Part shown: positions 13,358-31,842 of the stretch, one piece after another | Layout: each line of letters opens with the position of its first letter | Numbering within the stretch: the stretch's first letter is position 1 | Origin: an uncultured Candidatus Saccharibacteria bacterium | GTDB lineage: Bacteria; Patescibacteriota; Doudnabacteria; UBA920 | NCBI GenBank assembly: GCA_964650345.1 | Contig: CAZYSI010000002.1 | Location: 1-44,059 of the forward strand | Direction: 5' to 3' | Length of the DNA: 44,059 nucleotides | Program-made: the position numbers and the translations under genes | The notes under the pieces: generated by a model | What the model was told of the DNA's origin: nothing | Databases searched by the model: none | Seen by the model: the letters and a program-made list of their open reading frames with translations, nothing else

Positions 13358-13762
13358 ATGCTATTTGATCCTAACCGCACTACTGCCAGCGAAAACAAAG
13401 CCAGTGCAGCGAATGATTTAGAAAAAGATAATATTGCTATACAGGGCGAGTTTCGTCCAGAACCAGTCGAAGAACCAGAAGGCTTAGGGGTTGAAACTGA
13501 AAATTTTACTAGTAGGCCACAAAATCCAGAGGAAGTTAAGTTAGCTCCTGATTTGCCCTCAGATGAAGTTGTGCAGCCAACAACCGAAATTCTTGCTCCA
13601 GAAACTATCTTAGAAGAAGATCATACCAAATTGACTGGAGAAAAAGAAGAACAGGCTCGTTTTTTAGAACATCTTCTTGCTGAAGATTCAAAAATTTTAG
13701 ATCCTAATTCAGAAATGGACCCTGCCACATTAAACGATATGGTTGATGGTATATCTCAATAA
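13358..13762 (+). CDS. Hypothetical acidic, Glu/Pro-rich protein (134 aa)
   Basis: ORF sits 28 nt upstream of the ATPase gene on the same strand. Low-complexity acidic composition, no TM helix, no recognised motif. Confidence 0.5.
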   Translation: MLFDPNRTTASENKASAANDLEKDNIAIQGEFRPEPVEEPEGLGVETENFTSRPQNPEEVKLAPDLPSDEVVQPTTEILAPETILEEDHTKLTGEKEEQARFLEHLLAEDSKILDPNSEMDPATLNDMVDGISQ

Positions 13763-13790
13763 AATTTCTATAAAACAAAACTAAAATCAA

Positions 13791-16346
13791 GTGCCTTTTG
13801 AATTAAGCACCATTGCCATTGCCGGAATAGTCCTAGCCGTTCTAATCGCGGTGTTTTTCGCATTTCTAGCATATTACTTGCATCGCCATTGGTATTACAC
13901 CAAAGTTATCCTGCCGCGCACTAAGAACTGGGTGTTTATGGAAATACAAATGCCGAAAGAGAGCTCTGAAGATAAAAATTCGCAGCTGCAAAATAACGAA
14001 GAGGGCAAGAAGAATCTCATTGCTGTAGCTGAGCAATTATTTACCTCACTTTCGGAAATTAGTCATGAGAATTGGTGGTTTCAGCCGAAAGAGTATATTA
14101 GTTTTGAAATTGCTTGCACTGACAAGAAGATTTCATTTTACATAAACTGTCCTCAGCATTTACAGCAACTCATTGAAAAACAATTGCAGGCTCAGTATCC
14201 GCATTCATTTGTAGAAATTGTTCGGGCATATAATCCTTTCCAAAAAGGTGGACAGGTGGTTGCAACGGAATTACAAACCACGCGTCCATATGTGTTCCCG
14301 ATTCGTACCTATAAAACCATGGAGACTGATCCTTTGAACTCTTTGACTAACGCAATGTCGAAATTAGGCGAAGGGGAAGGGGCTGCTATTCAATTCATAC
14401 TCTCACCTGCAGGGCATCATTGGCAACACAAACCACGCCATATGGCTTTGGAAATTCAGCAGGGAAAGAATCCGGATAAAGTAGTTAAAGGGGTTGGCGC
14501 GCGCGTGGCTTCGGAAGCGTTTTCAACTTTGAAAGACAGCACTCTGGGGAAAAATAATCCTTCCGCAGCAGGACAGCATCATCAAGATTTGTCGGGAATG
14601 TACAGCCCGATTAATCTGACTCCAATGCAGCAGGAGATGGTGAAGCGGTTTGAAGAGAAAGCCAGTCGACCAGGATTTAAAACTAATATCCGGATTGTTT
14701 GTTCATCTGTTAATCCTGGTGCAGCGGCAGTGAATTTGAATAATATTGTTTCATCTTTTTTGCAATACAACATGCCTCCATTTAATGGCTTTCGAATTAA
14801 AAAGCGAGCTCAGGCCTCGATCGTTAAAGATTTTATTTTCCGCATTTACCGCCGCTATGGCAGCAAAGCCATTTTAAATACGGAAGAACTAGCTAGTTTA
14901 TGGCATTTACCAACGCCATTTTTAGAAACTCCGAATATTAAGTGGCTGCAGTCTAAAAAGGCGCCGCCGCCAGTGAATTTGTCAAAAGAGGGAATTTTAA
15001 TTGGCCGAAATATTTACCGCGGGGTGGAAACGCAAATCTTTGCAGATCGAGATGATCGCCGCCGCCACATGTACATTCTGGGACGAACTGGTGTGGGTAA
15101 AACCGAGATCATGAAGTATATGTCTGTGCAGGATATTAAGAACGGCGAAGGATTATGCATTATCGACCCGCATGGTGATTTCATTGAGGATGTGTTACCA
15201 CACATTCCAAAGGAGCGTGCAGAAGATGTAATTTTGTTTGAGCCGTTCGATACTGAGCGTCCAATGGGTTTGAACATGCTCGAAGTTCGCCAAGAAGGGG
15301 AGAAAGATTTTGCGGTACAGGAAATGATCTCGATTTTTTACAAACTGGTGACTGACCCTGCAATGCTAGGGCCAATGTTTGAACACAACATGCGTAACGC
15401 CATGCTGACTTTAATGGCCGACGAAACTCATCCTGGAACCTTAGTAGAAATTCCACGTATTTTTACAGACGTTGAGTTCCAAAAATACAAGATTAGTAAA
15501 TTACAAGATCCAGTGGTGCGAGCGTTTTGGGAAAAAGAAATGGCTAAGACCAGTGACTTTCACAAGTCGGAAATGCTGGGTTACTTGGTTTCAAAAGTTG
15601 GGCGGTTCGTAGAAAATTCCATGATGCGAAATATTGTTGGGCAGCCCAAGAGCGCCTTTAATTTCCGCGATGTCATGGACAATGGCAAAATTTTGTTGGT
15701 GAATTTAGCCAAAGGTAAAGTTGGTGAAATGAATGCCAAGCTGATCGGCTTAATTTTAGTCAGTAAGATTCAAATGGCTGCTATGTCACGCGCGGATATT
15801 CCCGAAGAAGATCGTAAAGACTTTTATTTGTACGTGGATGAATTTCAAAACTTTATTACCGACGCGTTTTCAAGTATTTTGTCTGAGGCGCGAAAGTACC
15901 GCTTGAACTTAATTATTGGCCATCAGTTCTTAGGGCAATTATCGCAAGGAGCGGGTGTTCAAGGCGCAGGTAGCAATGATCTACGTGATGCTGTATTTGG
16001 TAATGCCGGCAGCATGGTCACATTCAGGATTGGCGTGGAAGATGCCGAAATTATGGCCAAGGAGTACGCTCCAGTGTTTAATGACTTCGATTTACTAAAT
16101 GTCGACCGGTTTAATGCTTTTGTAAAGTTAATGATTAACGGCACTGCCAGTAAACCATTTAACATGGCAACATATCCGTTGGAAAAAGCCACCGAAGAAC
16201 AGCGCGCCACTGCCGCAGCCATTCGTCAGTTATCTCGTTTGAAATTTGGTCGTCCACGCGCTGAAGTTGAAGCTGAAATTCTCGAAGCTAGTCGTGTGGC
16301 TGACATGATGGCAGCCGGTGAGGCTGGAATAGAAAAAACCGTTTAG
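13791..16346 (+). CDS. Membrane-anchored FtsK/HerA/VirD4(TraD)-superfamily P-loop ATPase, type IV coupling-protein-like (851 aa)
   Basis: GTG start. N-terminal TM helix IAIAGIVLAVLIAVFFAFLAYYL. Walker A GRTGVGKT (nt 15081-15104), then CIIDPHGDF. Walker B YLYVDEFQNF (Asp-Glu at 15837-15842). C-terminal GNAGSMVTFR pattern as in coupling proteins. Confidence 0.75.
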   Translation: MPFELSTIAIAGIVLAVLIAVFFAFLAYYLHRHWYYTKVILPRTKNWVFMEIQMPKESSEDKNSQLQNNEEGKKNLIAVAEQLFTSLSEISHENWWFQPKEYISFEIACTDKKISFYINCPQHLQQLIEKQLQAQYPHSFVEIVRAYNPFQKGGQVVATELQTTRPYVFPIRTYKTMETDPLNSLTNAMSKLGEGEGAAIQFILSPAGHHWQHKPRHMALEIQQGKNPDKVVKGVGARVASEAFSTLKDSTLGKNNPSAAGQHHQDLSGMYSPINLTPMQQEMVKRFEEKASRPGFKTNIRIVCSSVNPGAAAVNLNNIVSSFLQYNMPPFNGFRIKKRAQASIVKDFIFRIYRRYGSKAILNTEELASLWHLPTPFLETPNIKWLQSKKAPPPVNLSKEGILIGRNIYRGVETQIFADRDDRRRHMYILGRTGVGKTEIMKYMSVQDIKNGEGLCIIDPHGDFIEDVLPHIPKERAEDVILFEPFDTERPMGLNMLEVRQEGEKDFAVQEMISIFYKLVTDPAMLGPMFEHNMRNAMLTLMADETHPGTLVEIPRIFTDVEFQKYKISKLQDPVVRAFWEKEMAKTSDFHKSEMLGYLVSKVGRFVENSMMRNIVGQPKSAFNFRDVMDNGKILLVNLAKGKVGEMNAKLIGLILVSKIQMAAMSRADIPEEDRKDFYLYVDEFQNFITDAFSSILSEARKYRLNLIIGHQFLGQLSQGAGVQGAGSNDLRDAVFGNAGSMVTFRIGVEDAEIMAKEYAPVFNDFDLLNVDRFNAFVKLMINGTASKPFNMATYPLEKATEEQRATAAAIRQLSRLKFGRPRAEVEAEILEASRVADMMAAGEAGIEKTV

Positions 16347-16365
16347 GGTTACCAAAAAACATAAA

Positions 16366-16374
16366 TGATATAAT
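16366..16374 (+). promoter_or_regulatory. Extended -10 (TGATATAAT) placed 6 nt before an ATG; leaderless-type promoter candidate
   Basis: tgatataat at 16366-16374. The ATG of the next ORF is at 16381. Confidence 0.45.
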
Positions 16375-16380
16375 AGATTT

Positions 16381-17763: not shown

Positions 17764-17764
17764 T

Positions 17765-18061
17765 ATGAATAAATTTGATATTGATAATTTTATAGAGTTG
17801 GTAGAAGCGAATAAGTTGGATGATGCTAGTCAGAAACTTGGTAATTATTTTGATAAACTTACACCAGCGGAAAAAGGAAAGGTCTATGTAGATATTGCAG
17901 GTATTTATATGCGCATGATTGCTGAAAATAACATGCGTTTGGTAGAATTTTTAGATGCTCAATTGGCTCGGTTGAGAGAAATAGATGAAATTGAGTCTAA
18001 CGCTAGTAATCAGATTAAAGATAGATTTGATTTAGCAGATCTTAGAAAAAAGCTGCAATAG
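17765..18061 (+). CDS. Hypothetical small helical protein (98 aa)
   Basis: Starts 2 nt after the previous stop. No recognised motif. Confidence 0.55.
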   Translation: MNKFDIDNFIELVEANKLDDASQKLGNYFDKLTPAEKGKVYVDIAGIYMRMIAENNMRLVEFLDAQLARLREIDEIESNASNQIKDRFDLADLRKKLQ

Positions 18062-18084
18062 TAAGAGTTTGATAGTTTACTTTT

Positions 18085-18112
18085 AAAATCCCCTTTAAAT
18101 AAAAGGGATTTT
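18085..18112 (+). terminator. Weak terminator-like hairpin
   Basis: aaaatccc (18085-18092) / gggatttt (18105-18112), 12-nt loop. The stem is AT-rich, so this is a low-confidence call. Confidence 0.4.
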
Positions 18113-18136
18113 AAATATTCTTAAAAATACTAAACC

Positions 18137-18165
18137 TTGACAAAACGTCTTAAATTTGCTATAAT
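18137..18165 (+). promoter_or_regulatory. Consensus sigma70 promoter of the lectin cassette
   Basis: TTGACA (18137-18142), 17 nt, TATAAT (18160-18165), with TGC immediately upstream of the -10. Confidence 0.75.
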
Positions 18166-18299: not shown

Positions 18300-19610
18300 A
18301 TGGCAACATCACGAACCGACGTTGAAGCTGTTGTTGAGTTCTTTGATCCCAACAACAAAACCAAGTCAGATAAGAGCGGCAGAAATTACCCGCAGTATGG
18401 GTTTCTGTTCGTAATTGATGACGGGACTAGGATACCGATTCAAGACGAGGGTCTTGACGCGGCTATTAGTCCACAGCTCCGTAGAGATAATATCTTTACG
18501 GTGGATATTGTTGCTGATCCTACTAATCCCACAAGGGACAAAGTAAAAGCAACCAACTTTCGGTTTGTTAGAACCGAAGCCGGCGCTGCAGACAGCGCTA
18601 AGGCCAAATTCAAACCTGCCAAATCTGGTGCTCCTACACCTTCCTCAACAAAGGCCGACAAGGCCGATCCCAAACAAAATACTGAAGAGCTTTGGCGGCT
18701 CGAGGTAATGGGTGAACCAGTCGGAGGCGATAATAGCGGCGAATGGACAATATCCGTGGAGTTGGATAAAAACAACTACCCGGTACCAGACGCCAAGATC
18801 AAATTCCGTGCTGGATCGACAAGTTTCGTTGGGACGACCGGTCCCGAAGGCTGCATCGAACAGACCATAACTGTTTCAGATAATACGTATGGGCGGGTCG
18901 TTTACGACTCATCCCTGAGTATATCTGGAATACCGATTGCTGGACCAGATAAAGCTGTTGCCCCTAAGCGTAAGCTTACGGGTTGGCACTGGTTTAACAA
19001 TTTTTTGTATGGTTTTTGGACTGCTGTGCTTGTGCTTTCGATCATTCTGTGGGTACGGGCGGGTTATGTGGAGCTCACAACGCCTTACTCGCAGACCAAA
19101 TCGGTCAGCACAACACAGCAGGACAACGGCCGACCTAAGTTTTCTTGGGACAAGACTCAGCAACCTGCTCCAGAAACGGAGCAGGCAGCAGTAAGTTGGG
19201 GTGGTTACATTTGGAGCTGGACTCCAATGGGATCATTCCTCATTTTGCTACTCTGGTTCTTCCTTTGGATTATTTTGTTTCCGATTTGTTTCGGAGCGGA
19301 GATCTGGGAAGCTTTGCTGAATCAGTACCAAAAAAGCAAAGGCGCTATCGAGGCTTGGCGTCATACGCGTGAACCATTCCAGTATACCGTCGAGGTTATC
19401 CGGAATGGCGGCAAAATCGCTCAGAAACCGGTGTATATGTACAACGGCGAAAAAGTGAATAAGCCCGAGACGCGCTCGGAAGCGATGAGTTCGCTGAAGA
19501 ATATGAAATTCGGCGATATCAAAGAATTTATCAAGTTCGATTTGTTGTCGGATCTCGGCGTAATGCTATTCGACCGCTTCGTGCTTGGCAGACTATTTGG
19601 AGGAAGGTAA
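18300..19610 (+). CDS. Hypothetical two-TM membrane protein with N-terminal soluble domains (436 aa)
   Basis: AAGGAG lies 7-8 nt before the ATG. Soluble N-terminal ~230 aa with a Lys/Ala/Pro linker. TM helices FLYGFWTAVLVLSIILWV and FLILLLWFFLWIILFPICF. Confidence 0.7.
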   Translation: MATSRTDVEAVVEFFDPNNKTKSDKSGRNYPQYGFLFVIDDGTRIPIQDEGLDAAISPQLRRDNIFTVDIVADPTNPTRDKVKATNFRFVRTEAGAADSAKAKFKPAKSGAPTPSSTKADKADPKQNTEELWRLEVMGEPVGGDNSGEWTISVELDKNNYPVPDAKIKFRAGSTSFVGTTGPEGCIEQTITVSDNTYGRVVYDSSLSISGIPIAGPDKAVAPKRKLTGWHWFNNFLYGFWTAVLVLSIILWVRAGYVELTTPYSQTKSVSTTQQDNGRPKFSWDKTQQPAPETEQAAVSWGGYIWSWTPMGSFLILLLWFFLWIILFPICFGAEIWEALLNQYQKSKGAIEAWRHTREPFQYTVEVIRNGGKIAQKPVYMYNGEKVNKPETRSEAMSSLKNMKFGDIKEFIKFDLLSDLGVMLFDRFVLGRLFGGR

Positions 19611-19611
19611 C

Positions 19612-20661
19612 ATGGATACGTGGAAAAAAGTTGGAATCGCAGTGGTACTTCTGCTGCTGGTCGTTGTTGGTATTTTGATCTTCAAGGCCTTGGTCATGAA
19701 GTATTTCGATCTGACGCTGTCGTTGGTCTTTGTTTTGTCGGCATTCGTGCTGGCAGCGATCGCGCTAGCGTTCATTCACTTTTTTGCTCCTGAGAGCTCT
19801 CGCAGCTTTCTGACGAGTGGAGTTGTCGTGATGCTGGTTCTGTTCTGCGGGTGGTCAATCTATGCAGGCACTAGTCCAGTAGCGGCTAAAACCACGAAAA
19901 AAGGGATCGCGGCTCACTTTCTTAACTTCGCCAAAAATTTGTTGCCGGACAATTCAGCTAATGATGAGGTTACTCATCAGGCTGATATGGACTGCGACGA
20001 AGCAACTGCGGAGTTTCGCTATAATGTCGAGCAGAAATTGCTGGACAATTATAAGCAGGATGGCGATGTTGATAAGTACCTCCGTGCCCGAGCAGAATTG
20101 CAGGAGAAGTTGATGAAGAACACTGCTTTATGCAGTTCGGCATCACGTTCTTCGGTTACTCCTTCCTCGACGCCCGCGCCGGCGAGTACTCCCGCCTCAA
20201 CAACTTCTTCAACTAGCATGGTAGCAACTACGGGAACAACCAAAGTTTTCGTGGATGCTACTCGGTACAATGGAGTCGGGTCGGTTCAATTGATTTCTGG
20301 ACGAAAGTTCGAAATTAAAGGGACAGGCACGGCGGTGTGGAAAAATATTCCCGTAGGAAATCCGACAAAGTATGAATCTTGCGGTCCGGAAGGCACTTCG
20401 CCAACTGCATCGGTCAAGATGACCCGTGAGGAGTACTTCTCCAATATCGGGGACTACTTATGTCCTACGGCTCTCAAGGGTGCGCTCATTGCCAAAATTG
20501 GCAACGGGGCGTGGTTCCCGGTCGGAAAAAACTTTCAGGGGGTAGCCCAGAATGATGGGGTGCTGACTTTAGCGGTCAACGATCTTGATCCGCAAAAGCA
20601 GCCCACGTCGAACTGGGCAGACAATGGTGGTGGGTTCTCGGTGGCGGTCATCGTACACTGA
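19612..20661 (+). CDS. Membrane-anchored protein with C-terminal PA-IL (LecA)-like lectin domain
   Basis: I prefer the ATG at 19612 (GGAGGAAGG taa c ATG; SD at 19599-19603) over the 19585 ATG in the ORF track. Three N-terminal TM helices, then a Ser/Thr/Pro linker (SSVTPSSTPAPASTPASTTSSTS). The C-terminus reads CGPEG...GALIAKIGNG...GVLTLAVND...DNGGGFSVAVIV, resembling P. aeruginosa LecA as I recall it. Confidence 0.7.
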   Translation: MDTWKKVGIAVVLLLLVVVGILIFKALVMKYFDLTLSLVFVLSAFVLAAIALAFIHFFAPESSRSFLTSGVVVMLVLFCGWSIYAGTSPVAAKTTKKGIAAHFLNFAKNLLPDNSANDEVTHQADMDCDEATAEFRYNVEQKLLDNYKQDGDVDKYLRARAELQEKLMKNTALCSSASRSSVTPSSTPAPASTPASTTSSTSMVATTGTTKVFVDATRYNGVGSVQLISGRKFEIKGTGTAVWKNIPVGNPTKYESCGPEGTSPTASVKMTREEYFSNIGDYLCPTALKGALIAKIGNGAWFPVGKNFQGVAQNDGVLTLAVNDLDPQKQPTSNWADNGGGFSVAVIVH

Positions 20662-20675
20662 AGCCTATTTCACTG

Positions 20676-20716
20676 AAAGGGTTAGCGGATATAATTCGCT
20701 GACCCTTTTTATTTTG
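20676..20716 (+). terminator. Rho-independent terminator closing the lectin cassette
   Basis: aaagggttagcg-gatataatt-cgctgacccttt (one G-U pair) followed by ttattttg. Confidence 0.8.
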
Positions 20717-20748: not shown

Positions 20749-21687
20749 ATGTTGTTATCTTTTTTGAAGAAAAATTTTTATCTACATGAACTGATAATTA
20801 TCCCAGCTTTTATTGGGAGTGTAGGATTGAGTTGGTATTTTAGTCAAAATTACAATTGGTTGCCTCCATTTGCAGAATGGGTAATGCTAATTGCTTTGAT
20901 GTTTTTTATTGGTTTTGTATGTGTAAAAATTGCAACTGTTGGAATTAAGTTATTTTTTAAGTCTGAGATTGCTCAAAACAAATTTAATTATATAAAAACT
21001 TTCCGATTTATTAGAATTTTTTTTGCTATTTTTGTGTTGTTAATAATATATGAGAATTTACAACTCATTATTCCATCAATCGCTCCAACGCTTCAGGACC
21101 CTGCCTTGTTGTATTATGATGAACTGTTATTTGGTTTTTATCCGACTGATCCGTGGATTATGAACCTTGCCAATGTGTATCTCACAGAAATAATGAACGC
21201 AGTATACCTAACTTTCTATTTCTATATCCCTATTATTGCTCTGTTACTGTATGTTCAAAATTCGATTTCCGAAGCTTTGCGTTTTACGTTAGTAATGGTC
21301 ATTGCATTTCTAATCGCATTTGGACTTTATATATTAGTTCCCGGTATAGGACCCTTGTACTATCTTAAAGGTCAATTTCCTGTTGAATTAGACGGAACAT
21401 TGGTGAATTTAGTGCAGGGTATATTGCAGACCAGTGGAATTCCTCGCAATGTTTTTCCCAGCTTACATGTCGCTGGTAGTGCTATTCCGCTATACTTCTT
21501 TTACAAGAACTCTAAACCGTTGTTTATAGTTTGCTTGCCGGTCATTATTTTGTTGTGGCTATCGACCGTTTATTTGAGGTTGCATTACATTATTGATGTC
21601 TTTGCGGGGTGGTTTTTAGCAATTGTTTGCATAGCGCTTGGAACCTATTTATTTACGAAATGGAATGAAAAAACATTGGTTGATTAG
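20749..21687 (+). CDS. PAP2_C-type (sphingomyelin/IPC-synthase-like) lipid phosphotransferase family membrane protein
   Basis: Polytopic membrane protein with FPSLHVAGS and RLHYIIDVFAGW. These match the SGH / HYxxDVxxG signature of the PAP2 superfamily. Confidence 0.7.
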   Translation: MLLSFLKKNFYLHELIIIPAFIGSVGLSWYFSQNYNWLPPFAEWVMLIALMFFIGFVCVKIATVGIKLFFKSEIAQNKFNYIKTFRFIRIFFAIFVLLIIYENLQLIIPSIAPTLQDPALLYYDELLFGFYPTDPWIMNLANVYLTEIMNAVYLTFYFYIPIIALLLYVQNSISEALRFTLVMVIAFLIAFGLYILVPGIGPLYYLKGQFPVELDGTLVNLVQGILQTSGIPRNVFPSLHVAGSAIPLYFFYKNSKPLFIVCLPVIILLWLSTVYLRLHYIIDVFAGWFLAIVCIALGTYLFTKWNEKTLVD

Positions 21688-23221: not shown

Positions 23222-26200
23222 ATGTTGTTTCGCATAGGCGAGAGAAGTGGTTCTGATTTTGAAACAAAGCTAGATCCGGAGCGAAAACCGAGTGAAAATA
23301 TTAATGAGCTTGAGCAAACTAAAGCTGCTGAGGTTGATTTTGAAATAGGCAAAGAAGCAAAAGGTAAAGAAGGTATTAATGAACGTTTAGAAGAAGAATT
23401 GGGTGTCGTTGCAGAAAAAATTATTTCAAATAACGATGACTTAGAAAATTTAATAGAGAGTAATTTTTCAGACCGGTCACCAGAGGAAAAACAAAAAATT
23501 CTAGAACAACTGCAATCCGCAGCTGGCAAAGAAGAATTTAAGGGTCATGTTAAGGAGTTTTTGACTAAGTCCTTACCAAAAGATTTTACTGTAGGCGCTT
23601 TGGCTGGTTTCGCAGCTCCGCTAATAGCCAAGATAGCAGTTAAAAATTCAGCACGGGCTTTACTTGCTAGTAAAACATTTGGAGTGAGTGTGGCTGCTGG
23701 CGCGATCGCTAACGCTGTTGTTGAACCATTGAGACATTGGATTCGCAATAAAGAAAAAATTGTTGCAAAAGATATTGAATGGCAATTAGCAGCCGCTCAG
23801 TCGTCGGAGCAGCAAGCCGCTATTATCGCTCAGACCCAGAAAAGTTTGGAGGCAGGTCGGTTTCGTAAAGAGGACGAAGCTGGTGTTCGAGCACTATTGC
23901 AAGAACAGCTTGTAAAGGTACATTTAGAAACAAATAAAGAAGGTTTGGAAGGCAAGGATAAGGTTTTACAAATACTGGAAATTTCAAAATCTACCCGACG
24001 TGCTTTGTTTACGAAAGAGGGCAGGGCAGTGCGAAAGCTAATTAATAGCGTTGAGCTGCTTACTGAAAAAAATAAGGTTGGTTATAAGGAGCTAGCTTCA
24101 GCTTCACTTAAAGGCGCTCTTACTGGCGCTGTGGGGGGCGCTGTGGGGGGCGCACTTCATTATTTCCTTGTCGATGCCGGGTACGGCCAAAAAGCCGTCG
24201 ATGTTATCGGGGAGAAATTAAAGGCTGGTTGGTCTGTTTTGCGAAATATGAAAGGCAGTGGTGGCCCTGCGTTGGCATTTATTAACCCAACCTTAGCAAC
24301 TACTCTTTACGGGGAAGTAAGTAACTACGCTCCAGATGTTCCGGAGAAAGAAATTCCCGACGCTGTTAAGCAGGTCATTGCTAACAAAGCTGAGCAGTCT
24401 TTTACAACAGCACCACAAGGATTGTCGGAGATAAAGGACAAACTAGCAGAACAGGCGTTTTATTCTGATTTAGAGCAGGGTAATGGGGGAACGCATTTGG
24501 CTCGAAAAGCATTACATGATTACAGGGTTAATCTAATTAAATCCGGCGATCCTGATGCTGCAAATCTCTCTACTGAACAATTAATCTTCGCAGAAAATTG
24601 GTTTATTAAGCATAAGTTAGATAAATATGTTGAAGAAGGTGCGGATCATGCCTTTAAGCTAGGGGAGGAAGTAAAACCCTTTGATGGCGCAGATTTGAGA
24701 GAGGCAATTGAGGAAGCAAAAAAACTGAATGAGGAACAGCTAAAGAATTTGCACAAATATGTAGACAAGCTTTCTGAAAAAACCATTCACGAAATGCACG
24801 ATTTACAGAATTTTGAAAATGCAGCGAATGACTATACTAAAAACATTCAATCGCCGCAGCCAGATCAAAGTAATGTCGCACCGGGCACTAACCCTGCAAT
24901 AAGTCCAACACCTGAAAACTATGACAATTATCATCCAGACCCGTTAACCGATGAGGAGCGTAAAGCTATAAATGATTCGCAAGATCGTTTTCAAGAAGAT
25001 CAAGCTACTGGTGGTTCTGAGATAGATAAGCAGATTGAACAGTATTATGAGGACAACAAAGACACTGGTCTGAATGAATCAGAAAAAAATATTGAAAGCA
25101 TTAATTCTAAATTAATTGCAATTGCTAAACTAAATCTCATGGGAGGCATCTTGCTTGGTGGGGCTGCAGCAGGGTTTTATATGTTCAAGAAGTGGCAAAA
25201 AGAACGCCCTACTCCTGAGCAAAGTAGAGAGGCGATTGAACAGCTGCTACGCCAAAGAGAACTAGAGGTTGAGCTGGGAGAAGGCGTGACCGATAAAGAC
25301 ATACATAAGCAGTACAATAAATTAATTCGGGCCATAGAACAAGATTACGCTTATGGTGGTTTAGCAAATCTTGCCGGTAAAAAAATTGTATTAGAAAAAG
25401 CGCATAGTGCTAAGGAGCCCTGGGTAGATCATACTGACCCCGAGGTAATTCATTTACCTGTTTCTGTAAAACTTGATAAGTTAGAAAGGTTTATTAATCA
25501 GCTAGATGATGATGCAATCGATCAAGCTAAAGAGTTTTCAGAACGAAAATTATATGAAGCGGGTGATATTATGTTAGATTTGGAGGATGAGTTTCAAATA
25601 AGAATTAGGTTCATTAACAGAGGTCCGAATGGAGTAAGTTCACAACAATTAATTGACAACCTCGATCGATTCAGAAACGCTTTGCGTGACTTACCAGCAG
25701 AGGATTTGCACGGGACGAACTTCGTTCTAACTTATGCCTTAAATGAGCTCGATAAGTCAAGCGGAGATATCTACATAGATGTGGTAAGGCAAACCGATGA
25801 AGAACTATCAAAAGAACTAAGGCAGTTACTTGGGTTAGCCGAAAATATTGAATCTGGAAGTGGTGCTCCAATTTTGGCTGAGCCAGTTTTTGAAGACGAA
25901 CCAGAAGATGTTGATGAGCCTGACTCGTCTGGTATTGTAGAACCAGAAATTAATCCGGTCGAACAAGCTAGACAGGAGATTCAATCTGAATTCAATGAAA
26001 TAGAACGAAAGCATGGTATGAATATAGCTTTGGCTAATGATAAAACCGCAGAATTATTAATGCGCGACCGCAATTTAATGTTTAATTTGCAAGACGGCAT
26101 TGAAGATGCGAGTCGATTCTATCCAGGGATGTTTTATCCTTTCGAAGGTTTTAAAATAGTTCTTGATGATAAATGGGCTTTAGAAAAAGGGGTGCGCCAT

Positions 26201-27895
26201 ATTAACATAAAACAAGGTACACCAAAGCAAATTGCAGATTTTTTAGTTGACCCAGTGAGAGCATTGCGACGTAATAATGAGCCTGCAGCAAGTGGGGTTG
26301 ATAGCATTGAAGTGCGCAATATCGAAGGTAATGAATCAAATCGATTCTTCGAAGAGAATGAAGTTCAGATTCATGGCTCAGCCTATGAATTTAGTCCAGG
26401 TTCTTTTGCTAAACTTGAGGTTAAAGATTTAGTTGACGCAGGCTTAGAACCAAAGCATACAGTTGTTGTAGGAAGTACTGAGTTGAGAGTTTCTCAGCCT
26501 TATAATTTAGACAACGGTCGTCTGGCAGCGATGGTCTATGTGAAGCAAGGCGATGTTTATGTTCCTCGTTCCTATTACAAAAGTAATTCAGCTGTATCTT
26601 GGCGTTATTTGCCTACATATAGTAGAGAGTATGACCCTGAAACAGATCGTTACAATCGTCATTACGATAAAGGCTATGACGAGGATAGTTTAGATGCTAC
26701 TTGGGAAGTGCAAATGGCTTTAACTAAGATCGCAGCAGAACCGAATAATATTATCAATACTCCAAAGGATCCAGAATTCTATATGTTTGGGACATGTTGG
26801 GAGAAAGACAAAGATAATACTTATCAATTTTCGGTTGACGAGTTAGGTGAAACCTATAATGGTCAGTTTAAAGTACCTGAAAGTGATCGGCAGAAGCACG
26901 AAAATGTAGGCGGGTTTTTGGAATTTACTGGTGTGAATAAACTCGAGCCAGAAAAGGTTGGTTTTGCTAATCACGCTTTTAATCCGAACTTTGCTGAAGG
27001 TCCAATAGCGGAATGGCCTGACTATAGCCACATTTATGGTGCGATCACTAATAGGGTTTTTCAGAGTAAAAATAAGCAGCTTACTTATGTGATTCATGAA
27101 AGCGCAGAGGGAAAGGTGTGGATGAACATTCAGACTAATACTGAATTAACTCCAGTTGGTGTGAGGAAGAAGTGGTTTGATGGCGGAGACTTAACCTCAC
27201 CTGCGTATGAATACAAATATCCTAAGATTTCGAATAGTGGTGAATCTTATGTCTACGATCAAACTGGAGGTTATGGTGATGATTCCGATAGAAGAGGTAG
27301 TTATGTTGACATGTTTAAAAACTACAATAGCAAAATTCCTATTATTAAAGAGTATCGGGAATGGAGAAATAATCCACCCGCATCGCCACAGCCAGAGTTA
27401 GTTATTGAACCAGAGCCGGTTAAGCCTAAGCAAGCAGCTTCGTCTCCTCGAGATAGAACCCTGAAGCCAACTCCAGAAAGCCTTCGTAGCTACCCAATAG
27501 GTATTGATTCTGCGCCAGCAACTGAAGCCTGGGATCTCCTTCACTCGGAATCTAAAGAGAATCCATTTCGATCAAATATTGATGATGTTGTTCCACAGCT
27601 TAGCCAACTGGAAAATTGGGTTAATGAGCAAAGAGACTTCAGTGTAATTTACCCTGAATCTCCAATTGTAAAAGCATTTGAAATGCTGAACACGCTATTC
27701 GATTTTTATTCTGATGACGACCGAGCTCGTTCAACTGTTTCCTGGTTACGAGATACTATTAGACAGTTAAACCGCGTAAGTATGAGGCGAGCAGAAGAGC
27801 AAGCCAATGCTAATTTGGGTCGCGATAATTCAGAAGACCCAATTCCTAAAGTAAAGACCAATCGCTTAGAACGAAAACATGGTAAGAAGGAATAG
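23222..27895 (+). CDS. Giant multi-domain membrane protein (1557 aa), function unknown
   Basis: Uninterrupted 4.67-kb ORF. Hydrophobic Gly/Ala-rich segments: FTVGALAGFAAPLIAKIAV, GALTGAVGGAVGGALHYFLV, LMGGILLGGAAAGFYMF. Acidic coiled regions and an aromatic-rich C-terminal region of ~350 aa. No family motif recognised. Confidence 0.8.
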   Translation: MLFRIGERSGSDFETKLDPERKPSENINELEQTKAAEVDFEIGKEAKGKEGINERLEEELGVVAEKIISNNDDLENLIESNFSDRSPEEKQKILEQLQSAAGKEEFKGHVKEFLTKSLPKDFTVGALAGFAAPLIAKIAVKNSARALLASKTFGVSVAAGAIANAVVEPLRHWIRNKEKIVAKDIEWQLAAAQSSEQQAAIIAQTQKSLEAGRFRKEDEAGVRALLQEQLVKVHLETNKEGLEGKDKVLQILEISKSTRRALFTKEGRAVRKLINSVELLTEKNKVGYKELASASLKGALTGAVGGAVGGALHYFLVDAGYGQKAVDVIGEKLKAGWSVLRNMKGSGGPALAFINPTLATTLYGEVSNYAPDVPEKEIPDAVKQVIANKAEQSFTTAPQGLSEIKDKLAEQAFYSDLEQGNGGTHLARKALHDYRVNLIKSGDPDAANLSTEQLIFAENWFIKHKLDKYVEEGADHAFKLGEEVKPFDGADLREAIEEAKKLNEEQLKNLHKYVDKLSEKTIHEMHDLQNFENAANDYTKNIQSPQPDQSNVAPGTNPAISPTPENYDNYHPDPLTDEERKAINDSQDRFQEDQATGGSEIDKQIEQYYEDNKDTGLNESEKNIESINSKLIAIAKLNLMGGILLGGAAAGFYMFKKWQKERPTPEQSREAIEQLLRQRELEVELGEGVTDKDIHKQYNKLIRAIEQDYAYGGLANLAGKKIVLEKAHSAKEPWVDHTDPEVIHLPVSVKLDKLERFINQLDDDAIDQAKEFSERKLYEAGDIMLDLEDEFQIRIRFINRGPNGVSSQQLIDNLDRFRNALRDLPAEDLHGTNFVLTYALNELDKSSGDIYIDVVRQTDEELSKELRQLLGLAENIESGSGAPILAEPVFEDEPEDVDEPDSSGIVEPEINPVEQARQEIQSEFNEIERKHGMNIALANDKTAELLMRDRNLMFNLQDGIEDASRFYPGMFYPFEGFKIVLDDKWALEKGVRHINIKQGTPKQIADFLVDPVRALRRNNEPAASGVDSIEVRNIEGNESNRFFEENEVQIHGSAYEFSPGSFAKLEVKDLVDAGLEPKHTVVVGSTELRVSQPYNLDNGRLAAMVYVKQGDVYVPRSYYKSNSAVSWRYLPTYSREYDPETDRYNRHYDKGYDEDSLDATWEVQMALTKIAAEPNNIINTPKDPEFYMFGTCWEKDKDNTYQFSVDELGETYNGQFKVPESDRQKHENVGGFLEFTGVNKLEPEKVGFANHAFNPNFAEGPIAEWPDYSHIYGAITNRVFQSKNKQLTYVIHESAEGKVWMNIQTNTELTPVGVRKKWFDGGDLTSPAYEYKYPKISNSGESYVYDQTGGYGDDSDRRGSYVDMFKNYNSKIPIIKEYREWRNNPPASPQPELVIEPEPVKPKQAASSPRDRTLKPTPESLRSYPIGIDSAPATEAWDLLHSESKENPFRSNIDDVVPQLSQLENWVNEQRDFSVIYPESPIVKAFEMLNTLFDFYSDDDRARSTVSWLRDTIRQLNRVSMRRAEEQANANLGRDNSEDPIPKVKTNRLERKHGKKE

Positions 27896-27896
27896 G

Positions 27897-28211: not shown

Positions 28212-28217
28212 ATTTAA

Positions 28218-28226: not shown

Positions 28227-28241
28227 AAAGTTGTACTAAAC

Positions 28242-28272
28242 AAAAAAGCCCATATCAACAAATATGACATGG
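28242..28272 (-). terminator. Rho-independent terminator for the 28362-29396 gene
   Basis: Minus strand: CCATGTC-atatttgtt-GATATGG (7 bp including one G-U pair) followed by GCTTTTTTG. Confidence 0.65.
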
Positions 28273-28361
28273 AGACTTTTCGTTTAATTGTCTAATTCTT
28301 TTGCTATTTACTTTCCACCACTGTTTTACAGGGGCCAATTCCAATAGCATCTGAATTAAAT

Positions 28362-29396
28362 TCAGGTTATGGGTCCGCTCGGGGTCGGTGAGGTATTCGA
28401 ATTGCTCGAATTACTGTTCGTCGATCCGGACGGAGCCGCGGTATTGGAATTGCTGTTGCTGTTCTGCTGCTGCGAACTGGGATCAGGAGTCGGGCTAGGC
28501 GACGGCGTTGCCGCAGGAGCCTGGTTCGAACCTGGGTTTGTGTTCGCTGCAGGAGCAGTGGAATTGTCGGTGCCCTTGATCGTGACGGTAACGGCGACTT
28601 CGCACTTCGAGCCGCAATCTTTTGCAGCGTCGATCGTGGTGAACTTGATCGTAGCAGTGACATCCTGCGCATTCTTTTTCCCATTAAGCTTGGCAGTCAT
28701 GCGATTGGCAAGATCTGGGAAGGAGAGAAGCGCGTTCTGGGAATCGCTGGTGGCCTTGAGACGGGCAAGTATTGCATTACCGTCCTTGTCCTTGGCCTTA
28801 ATGACGATATTAGTTTCCACTGCAGTGTCGAGTTCGATGTTTGTGCTATCGGCCTCGAGACTGGCAACTTCCACCTTCTTCACTGTTACCTTGATGGCCT
28901 TGCGGAGCGCCGGGAATTCCTCGGACCCGATATAGAACGATCGAGTGCCGGGAAAGATCGAGTTAATGGTCAGCTTGTTGGTCTGCGCGTCGATCGAAGC
29001 GGTCGCAGTCTGCGACTTGCTGTAATCGGCGAGAAGCTTAGCGGTGAGCGAACTGTTATCGGCCTTTTTCAGGACGGACAGCTCTATCTCCAGCTGCTGA
29101 CCAGGGGTGGTTTCATATTCGTACTTGTCATCAGCGATGACAAACTTCGCCTCGGCCGTGTCGACTACCTCAGGCTTAGGAGCCGGGGGATTGTGTCGAC
29201 GAGCTGCTGCGGCTGTCTTCTTGACGCCGTTGCCATTGGCCTTTTTGGCGTGCTTCTTCTTGGCCTTCTTGGCCGAGTAGTTGTAAGCGGTCCGCGACGG
29301 GTTTATCGTCTGAGCCGACACCGAAAGGTGGCTTGCACACACGATGATACCGACGAAAAGTAACGAAATTATCGAAAGAATAGACAATCTTTTCAT
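28362..29396 (-). CDS. Secreted beta-rich (Ig-like repeat) protein with basic N-region and Ser/Asn/Pro-rich C-terminal tail
   Basis: Signal peptide MKRLSILSIISLLFVGIIVCASHLSVSAQ, then a Lys-rich stretch, two ~90-aa beta-strand-pattern modules, and the tail QQQNSNSNSNTAAPSGSTNSNSSNSNTSPTPSG. AGAGGAA lies before the ATG. G+C is markedly higher here: hand counts of two 60-nt lines gave 55% and 63%. Confidence 0.75.
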   Translation of the reverse strand: MKRLSILSIISLLFVGIIVCASHLSVSAQTINPSRTAYNYSAKKAKKKHAKKANGNGVKKTAAAARRHNPPAPKPEVVDTAEAKFVIADDKYEYETTPGQQLEIELSVLKKADNSSLTAKLLADYSKSQTATASIDAQTNKLTINSIFPGTRSFYIGSEEFPALRKAIKVTVKKVEVASLEADSTNIELDTAVETNIVIKAKDKDGNAILARLKATSDSQNALLSFPDLANRMTAKLNGKKNAQDVTATIKFTTIDAAKDCGSKCEVAVTVTIKGTDNSTAPAANTNPGSNQAPAATPSPSPTPDPSSQQQNSNSNSNTAAPSGSTNSNSSNSNTSPTPSGPIT

Positions 29397-29573
29397 GGTT
29401 TTCCTCTATTTGACTTAGAAATGTGCGGGTAGTCTGTATAGCGCTGGAACGCTGACCTTTTATCCCTTAAAGCTCCAGTTTCCGACAATTTTCTAGGATT
29501 TACTAGAAATTAGCTGAAACCAAAGCTCTAATGTAGTTTTATTTAATACAGTGCATATTTTAGCACATTTAGC

Positions 29574-29602
29574 TTGACTTGTCAAGTCTTTTGTGTTATA
29601 TT
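29574..29602 (+). promoter_or_regulatory. Sigma70-like promoter with palindrome over the -35
   Basis: TTGACT (29574-29579), 17 nt, TATATT (29597-29602). The palindrome CTTGAC-TT-GTCAAG (29573-29586) overlaps the -35. Confidence 0.6.
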
Positions 29603-29693
29603 AAATTGTTCTAAAAGCTGCATTTACTGTGATTTTTAGAGCAAAACAGTTAATTTTGTACATTTTCAACCTGTTCTGGAGGAACATTAGACT

Positions 29694-31769
29694 ATGAATA
29701 GTAACATCTTTTTAGCGCTTTTAGGTGTCTTTAACGTTTTAAGCCTTCTTATGCGACGGCGAGCGAAAAGCAAGCTGTCGCAGCGGGAGATCGACGCGTT
29801 GCTGACCAAATTTCCGCACCGGTCGGTAGACCAGTTGTTGTCGGCCGTTTATTCTTCACCAGTCGCTTTGGTTCGGTCACTGATCGACCATGCCGTTAAA
29901 TACAACGACGATTACACTGATGGTGATCGTGAGGCGGCAGTAGAGGTATTGTCCAAATTGTTCGTTAGTGTCGACTGGCAACCAAGAGTTTCTGGTTTGA
30001 CCGTAAAACGAATTTGGTCAGCAACCAAACAGCTAACCGAGTTGTCGGGAGCTGGCATTATCCTTGCTTTTGTCGTTTCGCTCATCGCTAATATTCTCGG
30101 GTATCTGTATTTTGAGAATTGGTGGATGTCCACCGTGGCGGTGACAGTTGGATACTTTGCTTTGGCTTCGTTTGTAGTTAGCGGTGTTCGCTACCTTTGG
30201 TCGCAGATGCCGTTGACTTCGCGTCTTGTAAAGGCGGGTCTAGTAATCGGCTTCCTTCTGTTTAGTTGGATGCCAATGATCATTTCTTATTTCTACCAAC
30301 CGGCAAGCGCGGTGGTTAATAAGGAACCTGGTATTATTGAGCAGGGAGCGATCGAGAAGCAGCTGGCGAAGATCTATGATCGTCCGCCAGTTCCTACTCG
30401 AGGAGTCCCAGCTTGGACTGCGATGGATATTAAGGTTGGCGCTAAGCGTCGATCTGAACTCAGCGCAGAACAGAAGACCTTGCGTGAATTATTGTTGGTA
30501 GACCAACTAACCTTTTCTTCTCTTAACACGACAGAAAAGGTAACTGGTTTCCAGCGTATGAAGAACTACACCACGCTCGTTTCGGCCTCCGTCGCCAATC
30601 TCTTAGTGCGCGATCCACAGGCTGGTAAGGACTTTGCTGAGCAAACAGGTTTACAACCCGAAAACCTGGCTGACTACTTCCTGGCAATTTTAGGGAAGGA
30701 GTCATCTTGGTCAAACGATTGTGAATCGGGGACCGGTCCGGTATGTCCCGCAGGTATTTCTATTGCCTTGGGGGAAGACGAGGGTTTGGTGAAGGGAAAT
30801 CAGGATCTTCGAAAGGTTCCGGAACATGCTATACCGATGATGGTTGAGTATGCTTATGGTAATTACCAAAAGCTTAATCGTCGTTGGGATCTGGCTGCTC
30901 TGGGTTATCATACTGGGCGTAGTCGCGCCTTAGGTTTGGTAAAGATTGCCCAAGAAGAGAATTTGCAATGGAAGACCTACATGGATATCTACTTTGCAGA
31001 TCCTGATAAATATCCACAAACCTGGGCTAAGGTCCAGGAAATCCATTCCAAGGACTTCGGTGATACCTACTGGCCTGGCATCATTCGCTATATGGAGCTT
31101 ATTTCTGTGTTTCGCACAGATGAAGAAGCTTTCCAAGAAATTGCGAAAGCGCAGCTCAGGAGGGTTGATGGTCGAAACATTGCCCCTAAGTACAAGTTCC
31201 ATACATTCTTTGACGAGAGCCTGTTGAATTTCGAGGGCATCGGTATGTTGAAGGACTTGAACGACTTGAAAGCTGCGGCTGCTAAAGGTTTGCTTGTAAC
31301 TGCACCGAACCATAACTCGATTAATTACCGCACAGCGGATGATCGAGGGATTGGTGCGAACGACAAGGCAAACGGTCTCGAGTACAAACGGTTAAGGCCT
31401 TTGGGTATTGGCGGTTTGTGGGCTGTGGGAACCTTGGTTGGTCGGCTTGATTCGCAGCAACGTCTGGACCTAACTTCCATGATTCGCACGGATGAGTACC
31501 AGAAAAAAGCGAATACTCGTGAGGATGTGGCTGTCCCAACTCATTTGTCGGGGTTGGTATTCGACATCTCGATGAAGGATATGAAGGATGACGATCCTGA
31601 ATACATCCGCATTGCATTCGCTCTCAATGAACTTGAGAATTACGGATGTGTAAGCTGGATGCCGGAAGGGAAAGCGTATCGAGCTTTCCATGTCGTCATT
31701 AATCCTTATCAGAAACAGTGCGTGGAGATGTTTATGAACAACTACCATGTTAGTGGTGCGGTCGGCTAA
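29694..31769 (+). CDS. Membrane-anchored putative cell-wall hydrolase: lytic-transglycosylase-like plus M15 (VanY-like) peptidase-like motifs
   Basis: GGAGG lies 11 nt before the ATG. The N-terminal ~200 aa contain several TM helices. LAILGKESSW (Glu codon 30699-30701) and AALGYHTG resemble SLT motifs I and III. SMIRTDEYQ, PTHLSGLVFD (31542-31565) and AYRAFHVV resemble the SxxR...Q / HxxGxxxD / xxH pattern of M15 peptidases. Confidence 0.6.
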   Translation: MNSNIFLALLGVFNVLSLLMRRRAKSKLSQREIDALLTKFPHRSVDQLLSAVYSSPVALVRSLIDHAVKYNDDYTDGDREAAVEVLSKLFVSVDWQPRVSGLTVKRIWSATKQLTELSGAGIILAFVVSLIANILGYLYFENWWMSTVAVTVGYFALASFVVSGVRYLWSQMPLTSRLVKAGLVIGFLLFSWMPMIISYFYQPASAVVNKEPGIIEQGAIEKQLAKIYDRPPVPTRGVPAWTAMDIKVGAKRRSELSAEQKTLRELLLVDQLTFSSLNTTEKVTGFQRMKNYTTLVSASVANLLVRDPQAGKDFAEQTGLQPENLADYFLAILGKESSWSNDCESGTGPVCPAGISIALGEDEGLVKGNQDLRKVPEHAIPMMVEYAYGNYQKLNRRWDLAALGYHTGRSRALGLVKIAQEENLQWKTYMDIYFADPDKYPQTWAKVQEIHSKDFGDTYWPGIIRYMELISVFRTDEEAFQEIAKAQLRRVDGRNIAPKYKFHTFFDESLLNFEGIGMLKDLNDLKAAAAKGLLVTAPNHNSINYRTADDRGIGANDKANGLEYKRLRPLGIGGLWAVGTLVGRLDSQQRLDLTSMIRTDEYQKKANTREDVAVPTHLSGLVFDISMKDMKDDDPEYIRIAFALNELENYGCVSWMPEGKAYRAFHVVINPYQKQCVEMFMNNYHVSGAVG

Positions 31770-31807
31770 CTCCGGCCTGGATTCATAGTCTCTGAACTGT
31801 TTTGCTC

Positions 31808-31842
31808 GCCGGCTCTTACTAAAAGTTTGAGCCGGCTTTTTT
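31808..31842 (+). terminator. Rho-independent terminator
   Basis: GCCGGCTC-13 nt-GAGCCGGC followed by TTTTTT. Confidence 0.88.

Follow-up and report, generated by a model that had tools for sequence, protein, structure and literature searches.

The DNA considered here, referred to below as the window, is a stretch of 44,059 nucleotides from contig CAZYSI010000002.1 of an uncultured Candidatus Saccharibacteria bacterium, and the interval under study, positions 13,358 to 31,842, lies directly downstream of secY. Its twelve genes encode, in order, an acidic protein, an ATPase related to the coupling proteins of conjugation systems, a coiled-coil protein (cc460), a small helical protein (sm98), a transmembrane protein (tm436), a membrane-anchored lectin-like protein (below, the lectin), a PAP2_3-family protein, a GT-C-fold glycosyltransferase, a giant protein, its DUF5663-family partner, a putatively secreted protein (ig344) and a putative wall hydrolase (slt691); the gene named p201 borders the interval on the right. 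All twelve open reading frames (ORFs) of the original prediction for this DNA proved real when checked. The interval is probably a composite, in which a core module containing the ATPase gene is followed by a replacement-type flexible island, made up for the most part of membrane and envelope genes, located at the junction between the ATPase gene and p201. This reading draws on the pattern of synteny, the folds and families of the encoded proteins, a compositional mosaic and the candidate boundaries of transcription units; the biochemical roles discussed below are predictions, and turnover of the island may diversify the cell envelope.

The window was compared with 80 Patescibacteria loci encoding a relative of the ATPase, many of them titled Doudnabacteria, all from species representatives and with 10-kb flanks; all window proteins were mapped on them by tblastn, iterated hidden Markov models (HMMs) and gene maps, with simple ORF calling. 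All 80 loci have the ATPase gene at one and the same chromosomal site, within the fixed order rplO – secY – (small genes) – acidic ORF – ATPase – (zero to three small ORFs) – p201 – GtrA – DnaX – p533 – RuvX. In the 57 loci showing both genes the spacer between the ATPase gene and p201 has a median of 891 bp and is shorter than 2 kb in 46; p201 directly adjoins the ATPase gene in many relatives and is the right border of the variable slot every time. Where the ATPase shares 75% or more identity with that of the window, 12 of the 14 informative loci have an insert of at least 5 kb, versus 5 of the 52 more distant ones, and the 15.6-kb spacer of the window is the largest observed. The ATPase–p201 junction, expanded in the clade of the window, is a clade-specific hotspot.

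The content of the 18.3–31.8-kb part varies among close relatives, while the flanks are constant. The 228 ORFs found in the slot fall into 125 clusters, and several paralogous families of proteins with multiple transmembrane segments occupy it in relatives. Among the 80 other loci slt691 recurs in two, the lectin family in three and the PAP2 protein in one (L001), tm436 and ig344 recur in none, and the lectin, the giant protein, the hydrolase and the secreted protein are never found together again as a set. The conserved neighbourhood in related genomes that had been expected for the interval was found for its sub-modules, which are syntenic, and not for the whole block. In one relative (L152, positions 10987–16287), whose ATPase is 86% identical, the slot holds a cassette of PP2C-like (by a faint Pfam hit), VWA and Ser-Thr kinase genes after a pair of the size of cc460 and sm98. 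The secY–ATPase spacer is variable too, since two distant loci, L035 and L036, carry four tandem ORFs of ~180 aa between secY and the acidic ORF.

The locus thus has the features of a replacement-type flexible island: a single site between core genes, content that differs in close relatives, and no mobility genes. Replacement-type flexible genomic ('glycotype') islands are known from free-living bacteria. As compared among species representatives, the present slot has in common with them the fixed core-gene site, the differing gene sets, the enrichment in envelope and glycosylation genes, the patches of atypical composition and the lack of mobility genes; it departs from them in containing genes for giant proteins and their DUF5663 partners, for a wall hydrolase and, in relatives, the kinase/PP2C/VWA cassette. 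The 18.3–31.8-kb part would have grown in this clade from independent cassettes, namely tm436 with the transmembrane-anchored PA-IL-like lectin, of foreign GC; the PAP2_3 and GT-C genes, with the GtrA gene next door; the membrane-anchored giant protein with its DUF5663 partner; and the secreted ig344 with slt691, a membrane-anchored transglycosylase/metallopeptidase-like wall hydrolase, of foreign GC content at third codon positions (GC3). The words 'accessory' and 'envelope' in the original prediction suit this part, where the glycosylation cassette and the wall hydrolase are envelope-related, but do not extend to the ATPase and its acidic partner, which are core.

The core character of the ATPase is apparent from its conservation. 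More than 3000 homologues are 70–90% identical to it, and across the same 54 loci the mean identity is 73.2% for the ATPase and 73.6% for SecY, compared with 69% for L15, 58% for RuvX and 44% for DnaX. The ATPase is a vertically inherited core gene, constrained like SecY; by annotation the interval is indeed free of housekeeping genes, as had been remarked, but the ATPase behaves as a core gene. In Pfam the protein matches TrwB_AAD_bind (1.9e-9, 37.3 bits with a cut-off of 20.5, residues 423–726) and DUF87 (1.2e-7, above the curated cut-off). The closest solved structure is TrwB (3.2e-8), followed by DotL (1e-3), and the profile search of the PDB gave the order TrwB, DotL, HerA. All this supports the membrane-anchored coupling-type ATPase recognized initially. 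Its identification as a VirB4 instead of a type IV coupling protein (T4CP) was rejected, as the PDB profile search gave no VirB4 match. The Walker A motif GRTGVGKT (residue 431) and the Walker B motif YVDEF (residue 681) are both invariant. Classical T4CPs usually have two N-terminal transmembrane segments; the N-terminal membrane anchor of this ATPase is one hydrophobic segment, residues ~7–29. The 13.36–18.06-kb part would constitute a chromosomal core module of the acidic protein, the ATPase and, in this clade, cc460 and sm98, in which the ATPase would still be a hexamer anchored in the membrane, an ATP-driven translocase or substrate receptor with a housekeeping role.

Outside the phylum, full-length homologues of the ATPase are 20–31% identical to it over ~80% of the length, most of the region preceding the NTPase domain included. 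They come from the conjugation clusters of monoderm plasmids (Bacillus, Embleya) of the MPF-FATA type and from Bacillus phage G (gp156), and bear titles such as 'DUF87 domain-containing' or 'type IV secretory system conjugative DNA transfer family'. On the Bacillus and Embleya plasmids the homologues are neighboured by VirB4-like, PrgI, replication-relaxation and NlpC/P60 genes, and the phage G homologue adjoins a VirB-like gene. The ATPase probably has its origin in the conjugation systems of monoderms, as a descendant of their coupling protein. The window and the 80 loci were searched with queries taken from the neighbours of the plasmid homologues (VirB4-like, PrgI, replication-relaxation, conjugal-transfer and NlpC/P60). 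Unlike the monoderm plasmid systems, neither the 44-kb window nor the 80 loci within 10 kb contain such neighbours, and homologues of VirB4, VirB6, PrgI, relaxases and conjugal-transfer proteins are absent from both, in agreement with the absence of canonical secretion structural genes reported originally.

Patescibacteria were reported to encode 5713 VirD4-type homologues in 2918 genomes, just 148 of them near virB4, and the t4cp homologue of S. epibionticum was reported as not essential and possibly exapted (Quinonero-Coronel et al. 2025, PMC12102498). The ATPase matches the 'orphan' coupling-protein homologues described there: it has a TrwB/VirD4-like NTPase domain, lies away from a virB4 cluster and without a relaxase, and is chromosomal and widespread, features by which it is likened to that set. 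What the present locus adds to the orphan T4CPs is the fixed position after secY, conservation at the level of SecY, the DUF8128 N-domain, the conserved acidic partner and the adjoining hypervariable slot.

An acidic ORF precedes the ATPase gene in 70 loci, with a median length of 129 aa and a median net charge of −10. In the window it contains 33 D/E against 10 K/R residues, as befits the acidic partner recognized from the beginning. The C-terminal motif hh-N-[DG]-hh is present in 12 of the 70 ORFs, where shuffled sequences would give 0.25; otherwise the sequences are too divergent between relatives for detection by BLAST or HMM. Through this conserved motif the acidic partner may dock to the ATPase or regulate it.

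Directly downstream of the ATPase gene, all close relatives examined carry a gene for a coiled-coil protein of ~400 aa and a gene for a helical protein of ~95 aa. In BLAST clustering of the slot ORFs cc460 is a singleton, but profile comparison identifies it as a divergent member of the family at the same position in relatives (hhalign E 1.7e-6 over 334 columns, with negative controls run). The coiled-coil partner of the original prediction is accordingly retained, the label 'coiled-coil' being taken from the sequence itself and not from a coiled-coil predictor. BLASTP of cc460 against the closest relative gives 4e-68 with 31% identity, and the sm98 ortholog there is 38% identical, though the ATPases are 90% identical. 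The sm98 family is present in L001, L002, L004, L006 and L151, and in L084, L085 and L152 an ORF of 92–95 aa at its position is likened to it by size and position alone; the cc and sm98 families co-occur in at least five loci. To judge from these comparisons, cc460 is a clade-specific, very fast-evolving downstream partner of the ATPase. Its interpretation as a degenerate replication-relaxation protein, that is, a relaxase remnant, was rejected (hhalign E 0.39–0.91). For ORFs of 77 and 147 aa in the ATPase–p201 gap of distant relatives, homology to sm98, DUF5663 or the cc family was likewise rejected (hhalign probability <1%).

The composition of the interval is a mosaic. The GC3 of core genes is 0.365 ± 0.05, while that of tm436 is 0.50, of the lectin 0.55, of ig344 0.65 and of slt691 0.51; the remaining island genes look native. 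With 0.43 the ATPase is ~1.3 standard deviations over the core mean, far under the four foreign-like genes. Consensus scans point to at least five candidate transcription units in the insert. A hairpin followed by a sigma-70-type promoter sequence with a TG extension that matches the consensus at 12 of 12 positions (18082–18165) probably marks where the ATPase operon ends and the island begins, a terminator-like hairpin closes the tm436–lectin unit, and divergent promoter-like sites lie at ~29570–29600 between ig344 and slt691, all of them consensus matches only.

The four foreign-like genes could suggest that the interval is a decayed integrated mobile element, a remnant of an integrative and conjugative element (ICE) or of a prophage that left behind a coupling protein and cargo. 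Outside the phylum the ATPase family is indeed typical of plasmids and phages (phrog_5156, 3.9e-92; homologues in 51 phage and 369 plasmid records), and the SLT-like domain of slt691 resembles a phage internal virion protein. However, no integrase or relaxase family was recognized among the window proteins by Pfam and PHROG profile scans, the tRNA scan found none, and the search for flanking direct or inverted repeats yielded nothing significant; the recognizable ICE that would have told against the original prediction was not found. Moreover, slt691 has no match in phage records and the C-terminal domain of the giant protein has none in phage records or IMG/VR, and the GC3 of the ATPase departs little from the core. 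As the divergence of the ATPase tracks that of SecY and its site is the same in the 80 loci, any capture must have been ancient and the gene is now core. A mobile-element remnant is therefore a very improbable explanation of the interval.

Within the island favoured here, the lectin, the PAP2 or GT2 protein, the GT-C protein and GtrA would form the most coherent cassette, resembling a Gtr/ArnT-style pathway of extracytoplasmic glycosylation. The GT-C protein had no sequence or profile match in Pfam or the PDB, none of eight members of its family has a Pfam match, and the family is small (66 clusters, no Pfam model). The fold was assigned because structure prediction resolved what sequence searches could not: the AlphaFold2 model, built from a 64-sequence alignment, has a predicted local distance difference test score (pLDDT) of 96.7 and a predicted template-modelling score of 0.93, and the 24 PDB matches found by Foldseek at E ≤ 1e-3 (best 1.9e-10; TM-scores 0.49–0.72, normalised to the query) are all GT-C enzymes, as the original prediction had it. 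The structural neighbours are STT3, AglB, PglB, DPY19, ALG12, ArnT and AftA. GT-C enzymes have a conserved acidic motif in the first extracytoplasmic loop; here the D-x-D motif D29-P-D31 after the first transmembrane segment is invariant in the 64 sequences; the WWDYG motif of oligosaccharyltransferases is not kept, its counterpart being QWDQF with only W401-D402 conserved, and the C-terminal domain is ~130 aa long.

The PAP2_3 protein scores 64.7 bits against a cut-off of 27 and has the catalytic motifs PSLH (residue 237) and HYIID (residue 279); its match to phosphoinositol dihydroceramide synthase (8e-6) is weak and far below the cut-off. Family membership and catalytic motifs thus bear out the lipid head-group transferase proposed for this gene in part, phosphatase and head-group transferase both being compatible with them. 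In two relatives a GT2 domain takes part in the cassette, fused to the GT-C protein in L084 and encoded by a gene overlapping the GT-C start in L085, both just before p201–GtrA; in the window there is no GT2 gene, and the PAP2_3 gene is at that position. The donor for the GT-C enzyme may be a lipid-phosphate-linked sugar, for which the GT2 fusion or neighbour in relatives and the adjoining GtrA gene are indirect signs. The polyprenyl-phosphate-linked sugar would be made inside, flipped, and moved to an envelope acceptor outside. Known polyprenyl-phosphate-sugar pathways with GT-C transferases include GtrA/GtrB/GtrC O-antigen glucosylation, ArnC/ArnT and PMT/DPY19. With the GtrA/B/C and ArnC/ArnT pathways the cassette shares the GT-C fold, the adjacent conserved GtrA gene and, in relatives, the GT2 fusion or overlap; its variable component is the GT-C gene, as gtrC is in the Gtr pathway. 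It differs from the Gtr and Arn pathways in the PAP2_3 gene in place of a GT2 gene, in the best neighbours (STT3, AglB and PglB) and in belonging to no Pfam family. It is also worth mentioning that the GtrA-family gene is ~41% identical between loci, against ~71% for the neighbouring p201, and may change in step with the island's glycosylation cassettes.

The lectin gene probably starts at the ATG at 19612. In seven to eight loci a polytopic protein with a C-terminal PA-IL-like domain is encoded one gene 5' of the GT-C family, the gene between the two being PAP2_3, another multi-transmembrane protein gene or a further one. The window protein itself reaches 17.9 bits with Pfam PA-IL (cut-off 22.5) and E 0.011 with the LecA structure, so the LecA-like assignment made originally falls below the threshold for this protein, although homologues pass it, with 2.6e-7 for members of its own family and 25.2 bits for a related family of polytopic transmembrane lectins. 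LecA (PA-IL) is the galactophilic lectin of Pseudomonas aeruginosa, and its D100, N107 and N108 are Ca/galactose ligands. The C-terminal half of the window domain aligns with LecA residues 55–114, a stretch to which the N-D...(N/D)-N-x-G-x-F segment belongs; counterparts of D100, N107 (as D) and N108 are aligned, while the N-terminal ligands Y36, H50 and Q53 are unaligned. In contrast to LecA, the domain is fused to a polytopic anchor and located inside a glycosylation cassette, and this fusion and setting suggest that it may be a carbohydrate-binding module for the pathway's own product, not a host adhesin.

The giant protein had been described as multi-transmembrane, which overstates its two to four hydrophobic segments; it is 17% acidic and otherwise very hydrophilic. 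The island giants of relatives share only the N-terminal ~600 aa, and their C-termini differ. A word-indexed search with the giant protein returned only the self-match, and Pfam recognizes nothing on 10 members of the giant family or on 10 carriers of its C-terminal domain. In an exhaustive HMMER search with residues 651–1557, the C-terminal domain turned up in 559 clusters of proteins (50% identity), which are 310–5186 aa long and often carry it at the C-terminus; its model has a pLDDT of 87 and no meaningful Foldseek neighbour in the PDB or BFVD. Of 52 full-length carriers from 64 metagenomic loci (L087–L150), 51 have no N-terminal hydrophobic segment, and several share an N-terminal motif resembling R-Q-Q-x-K-I and have no signal peptide. 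Given these carriers and the basic residues after the last hydrophobic segment of the giant protein, the C-terminal domain is probably cytoplasmic and a poor fit for a surface adhesin.

The giant family and the DUF5663 gene are present in an identical set of eight loci, and a second giant family is paired with a DUF5663-like gene in two further loci. The window and L023 (19988–20296) have the DUF5663 gene inverted relative to the giant gene; six other loci have it directly downstream on the same strand. DUF5663 as a general partner of the C-terminal domain was rejected, since it occurs in 2 of 63 carrier loci; it goes with the giants instead.

An island of anti-phage defence or inter-bacterial conflict, in which the giant would act like a polymorphic toxin and the small helical proteins would serve it as chaperones or immunity factors, is an unlikely interpretation of these genes. 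The quick turnover of content between conserved flanks would accord with it, as would giants with a common N-module and differing C-termini, the frequent C-terminal placement of the domain in its many clusters and the presence of small helical partners of ~100 aa. On the other hand, PADLOC recognized no defence system, the ATPase giving a generic P-loop match to the mad8 model (8.9e-16) and nine other proteins nothing; no toxin, nuclease or immunity family was recognized; the C-terminal domain has no structural neighbour to suggest an activity; and a DUF5663 neighbour is rare among its carriers.

The same giants enter into another reading, in which the ATPase and its acidic partner are a stand-alone, VirB4-independent translocase or receptor whose clients, the giant and the helical proteins of ~100 aa, are encoded in the adjacent slot. 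In type VII secretion, the gene for the FtsK-like EssC ATPase is followed by variable effector/chaperone cassettes. Here the slot always abuts the ATPase gene, the cc and sm98 proteins are 31–38% identical between genomes whose ATPases are 90% identical, the C-termini of the giants vary behind a conserved N-module, and carriers of the C-terminal domain have no Sec signals. Yet the ATPase shows no variation at its C-terminus, in contrast to EssC variants, the island is missing from most relatives, and giant–DUF5663 pairs occur also far from any such ATPase. A dedicated export of slot-encoded clients is rather improbable.

Of the genes with foreign composition, tm436 had no match in a PDB sequence search. 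For ig344 neither Pfam, PHROG nor the PDB gave a match to an Ig-like family, and its internal repeat is weak (z = 2.1); of the 'secreted Ig-like' protein of the original prediction, the secreted part is in keeping with a signal-peptide-like N-terminus. The transglycosylase matches of slt691 are weak but concordant (SLT 20.7 with a cut-off of 21.3, PHROG 342 1.3e-3, T7 gp16 0.014). In its peptidase part, H617-x6-D624...H666 is invariant in three family members and the sole profile match is DUF5715 (0.03). The proposed combination of transglycosylase and M15-like motifs would accord with these concordant but weak matches and with the invariant residues. PrgK, CwlT and TcpG are bifunctional wall hydrolases of Gram-positive conjugation systems (PMC12102498), and slt691 resembles them in having an N-terminal membrane anchor followed by transglycosylase-like and peptidase-like domains; it differs from them in its H-x6-D...H (LAS/M15-like) motif in place of CHAP or NlpC/P60, in having no adjoining VirB4, and in its rarity and foreign GC3.

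With these proteins characterized, the central proposal of the original prediction can be addressed, that the twelve genes form one apparatus for host interaction or secretion in which the lectin and the secreted protein would bind the partner cell, the hydrolase would open its peptidoglycan and the ATPase would drive the transfer of macromolecules. In its favour, the ATPase really is a homologue of coupling proteins, and its plasmid relatives adjoin wall hydrolases; slt691 has the layout transmembrane – SLT-like – peptidase-like, the island is always directly 3' of the ATPase gene in this clade, and genes of the type IV secretion system are essential for epibiotic growth of a Saccharimonadia strain (PMC12102498). 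Nevertheless, such a linked apparatus is hardly likely and the proposal was not upheld: the gene set never recurs and most relatives have the ATPase without the island; homologues of VirB4, VirB6, PrgI and relaxases are missing from the window and the 80 loci; the genes are divided among several candidate transcription units and mixed in GC3; the C-terminal domain of the giant is found almost solely in proteins without signal peptide or transmembrane segment; and the S. epibionticum t4cp homologue mentioned above was reported as not essential (PMC12102498).

Several points also weigh against the composite of core module and flexible island. In this clade the island always abuts the ATPase gene, together with which the cc–sm98 pair is conserved, so that some functional coupling of the ATPase with at least its immediate neighbours is possible. 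The layout of slt691 resembles that of wall hydrolases of Gram-positive conjugation systems. Without a GT2 gene in the window the proposed Gtr-like pathway is incomplete here, and the nearest structural neighbours of the GT-C protein are oligosaccharyltransferases, not GtrC or ArnT. The loci compared are species representatives with 10-kb flanks and simple ORF calling, and the promoter and terminator calls are consensus matches only.

The interval is flanked by housekeeping genes, except for a few ORFs without a family match: EF-Tu, ribosomal proteins and SecY upstream, and a GtrA-family protein, DnaX, RuvX, GalT, TpiA, RpiB, Rpe and a split transketolase downstream. The GC skew is positive along the entire window. 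The nearest relatives of the ATPase among species representatives are titled Candidatus Doudnabacteria, 'Patescibacteria group' or 'uncultured Ca. Saccharibacteria', the last of which is a generic name given to one series of metagenome-assembled genomes. The genes that usually follow secY (adk, map, infA, rpmJ, rpsM and others) are absent from the window (13181–13357 and onward), and in this lineage the ATPase module takes their place after secY. The right border gene p201 is ~71% identical among 54 loci, level with SecY; its product begins with a helix, is rich in beta structure towards the C-terminus and ends in an acidic tail in which a short tandem repeat lies (32515–32561), and it matched nothing in Pfam or, even as an 18-sequence profile, in the PDB. 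Among the ORFs without a family match, one of 246 aa (1258–1998) directly after tuf has weak TPR matches below the Pfam thresholds and a GC3 of 0.51; p533, of 533 aa (35121–36722), located between dnaX and ruvX, has no Pfam match and is syntenic in at least 27 loci at ~34% identity; and one of 432 aa (41260–42558), also without a Pfam match, separates the N half (40403–41245) and the C half (42587–43579) of transketolase. The coordinates of the features are listed in Table 1.

Table 1. Features of the interval and of its right flank (positions in the window).
Feature	Position	Strand	Evidence and remarks
Acidic protein, 134 aa, probably disordered, net charge −23	13358–13762	+	Composition, position
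ATPase, 851 aa, one transmembrane segment	13791–16346	+	Pfam, PDB, synteny
DUF8128 N-domain of the ATPase	~13908–14990	+	Precomputed annotation of relatives
TrwB/VirD4-type coupling-protein NTPase domain of the ATPase	~14994–16190	+	Pfam, PDB
cc460, coiled-coil protein, 460 aa, no transmembrane segment	16381–17763	+	hhalign to positional family
sm98, helical protein, 98 aa, always paired with the coiled-coil gene	17765–18061	+	Family in relatives
Hairpin	18082–18115	+	Consensus match only
Sigma-70-type promoter with TG extension	18137–18165	+	12/12 consensus; consensus match only
tm436, 436 aa, two transmembrane segments, singleton	18300–19610	+	Foreign-like GC3
Transmembrane lectin, three transmembrane segments, S/T/P-rich linker	19585–20661	+	Weak Pfam match, homologues
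C-terminal PA-IL (LecA)-like domain of the lectin	~20239–20655	+	Weak Pfam match, homologues
Terminator-like hairpin, 16-pair stem, T tail	20675–20709	+	Consensus match only
PAP2_3 lipid-phosphate phosphatase or phosphotransferase, six transmembrane segments	20749–21687	+	Pfam 1.3e-17; overlaps GT-C start
GT-C-fold glycosyltransferase	21638–23185	+	AlphaFold2 model, Foldseek
Giant protein, 1557 aa	23222–27895	+	N-module, central acidic region, beta-rich C-terminal domain
N-terminal module of the giant, glycine-rich hydrophobic segments	~23369–24916	+	Common to island giants of seven relatives
C-terminal beta-rich domain of the giant, ~365 aa, residues 1021–1385	26282–27376	+	HMMER, structure model
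DUF5663-family protein, 104 aa	27897–28211	−	Co-occurs with the giant protein
ig344, 344 aa, signal-peptide-like N-terminus, Lys-rich segment, S/N/P/T-rich tail, singleton	28362–29396	−	GC3 0.65
slt691, 691 aa, four transmembrane segments	29694–31769	+	SLT-like and LAS/M15-like domains, GC3 0.51
SLT-like domain of slt691	30645–30932	+	E336-S337 motif
LAS/M15-like H-x6-D...H domain of slt691	31455–31733	+	H617, D624, H666
p201, 201 aa	31969–32574	+	Conserved right flank; ~71% identical between loci
GtrA-family protein	32574–33212	+	Conserved right flank, after p201

For the scanning of genomes the locus carries the lesson that envelope genes beside a secretion-type ATPase prove no system before synteny is checked. 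Two families emerge from it for follow-up: the unannotated GT-C family, with an oligosaccharyltransferase-like fold and linked with GT2 and GtrA, and the confidently modelled domain of ~365 aa, present in hundreds of protein clusters and unmatched by any structure in the PDB or BFVD. Despite the tiny size of their genomes, Patescibacteria retain coupling-protein homologues. The constraint of this ATPase at the level of SecY, together with its fixed site where the ribosomal-protein/secY cluster ends and its constant acidic partner, points to an essential, repurposed function, for which partners can now be named, and the slot next to it is a natural experiment in how rapidly membrane and envelope genes are replaced in a lineage that is uncultivated.

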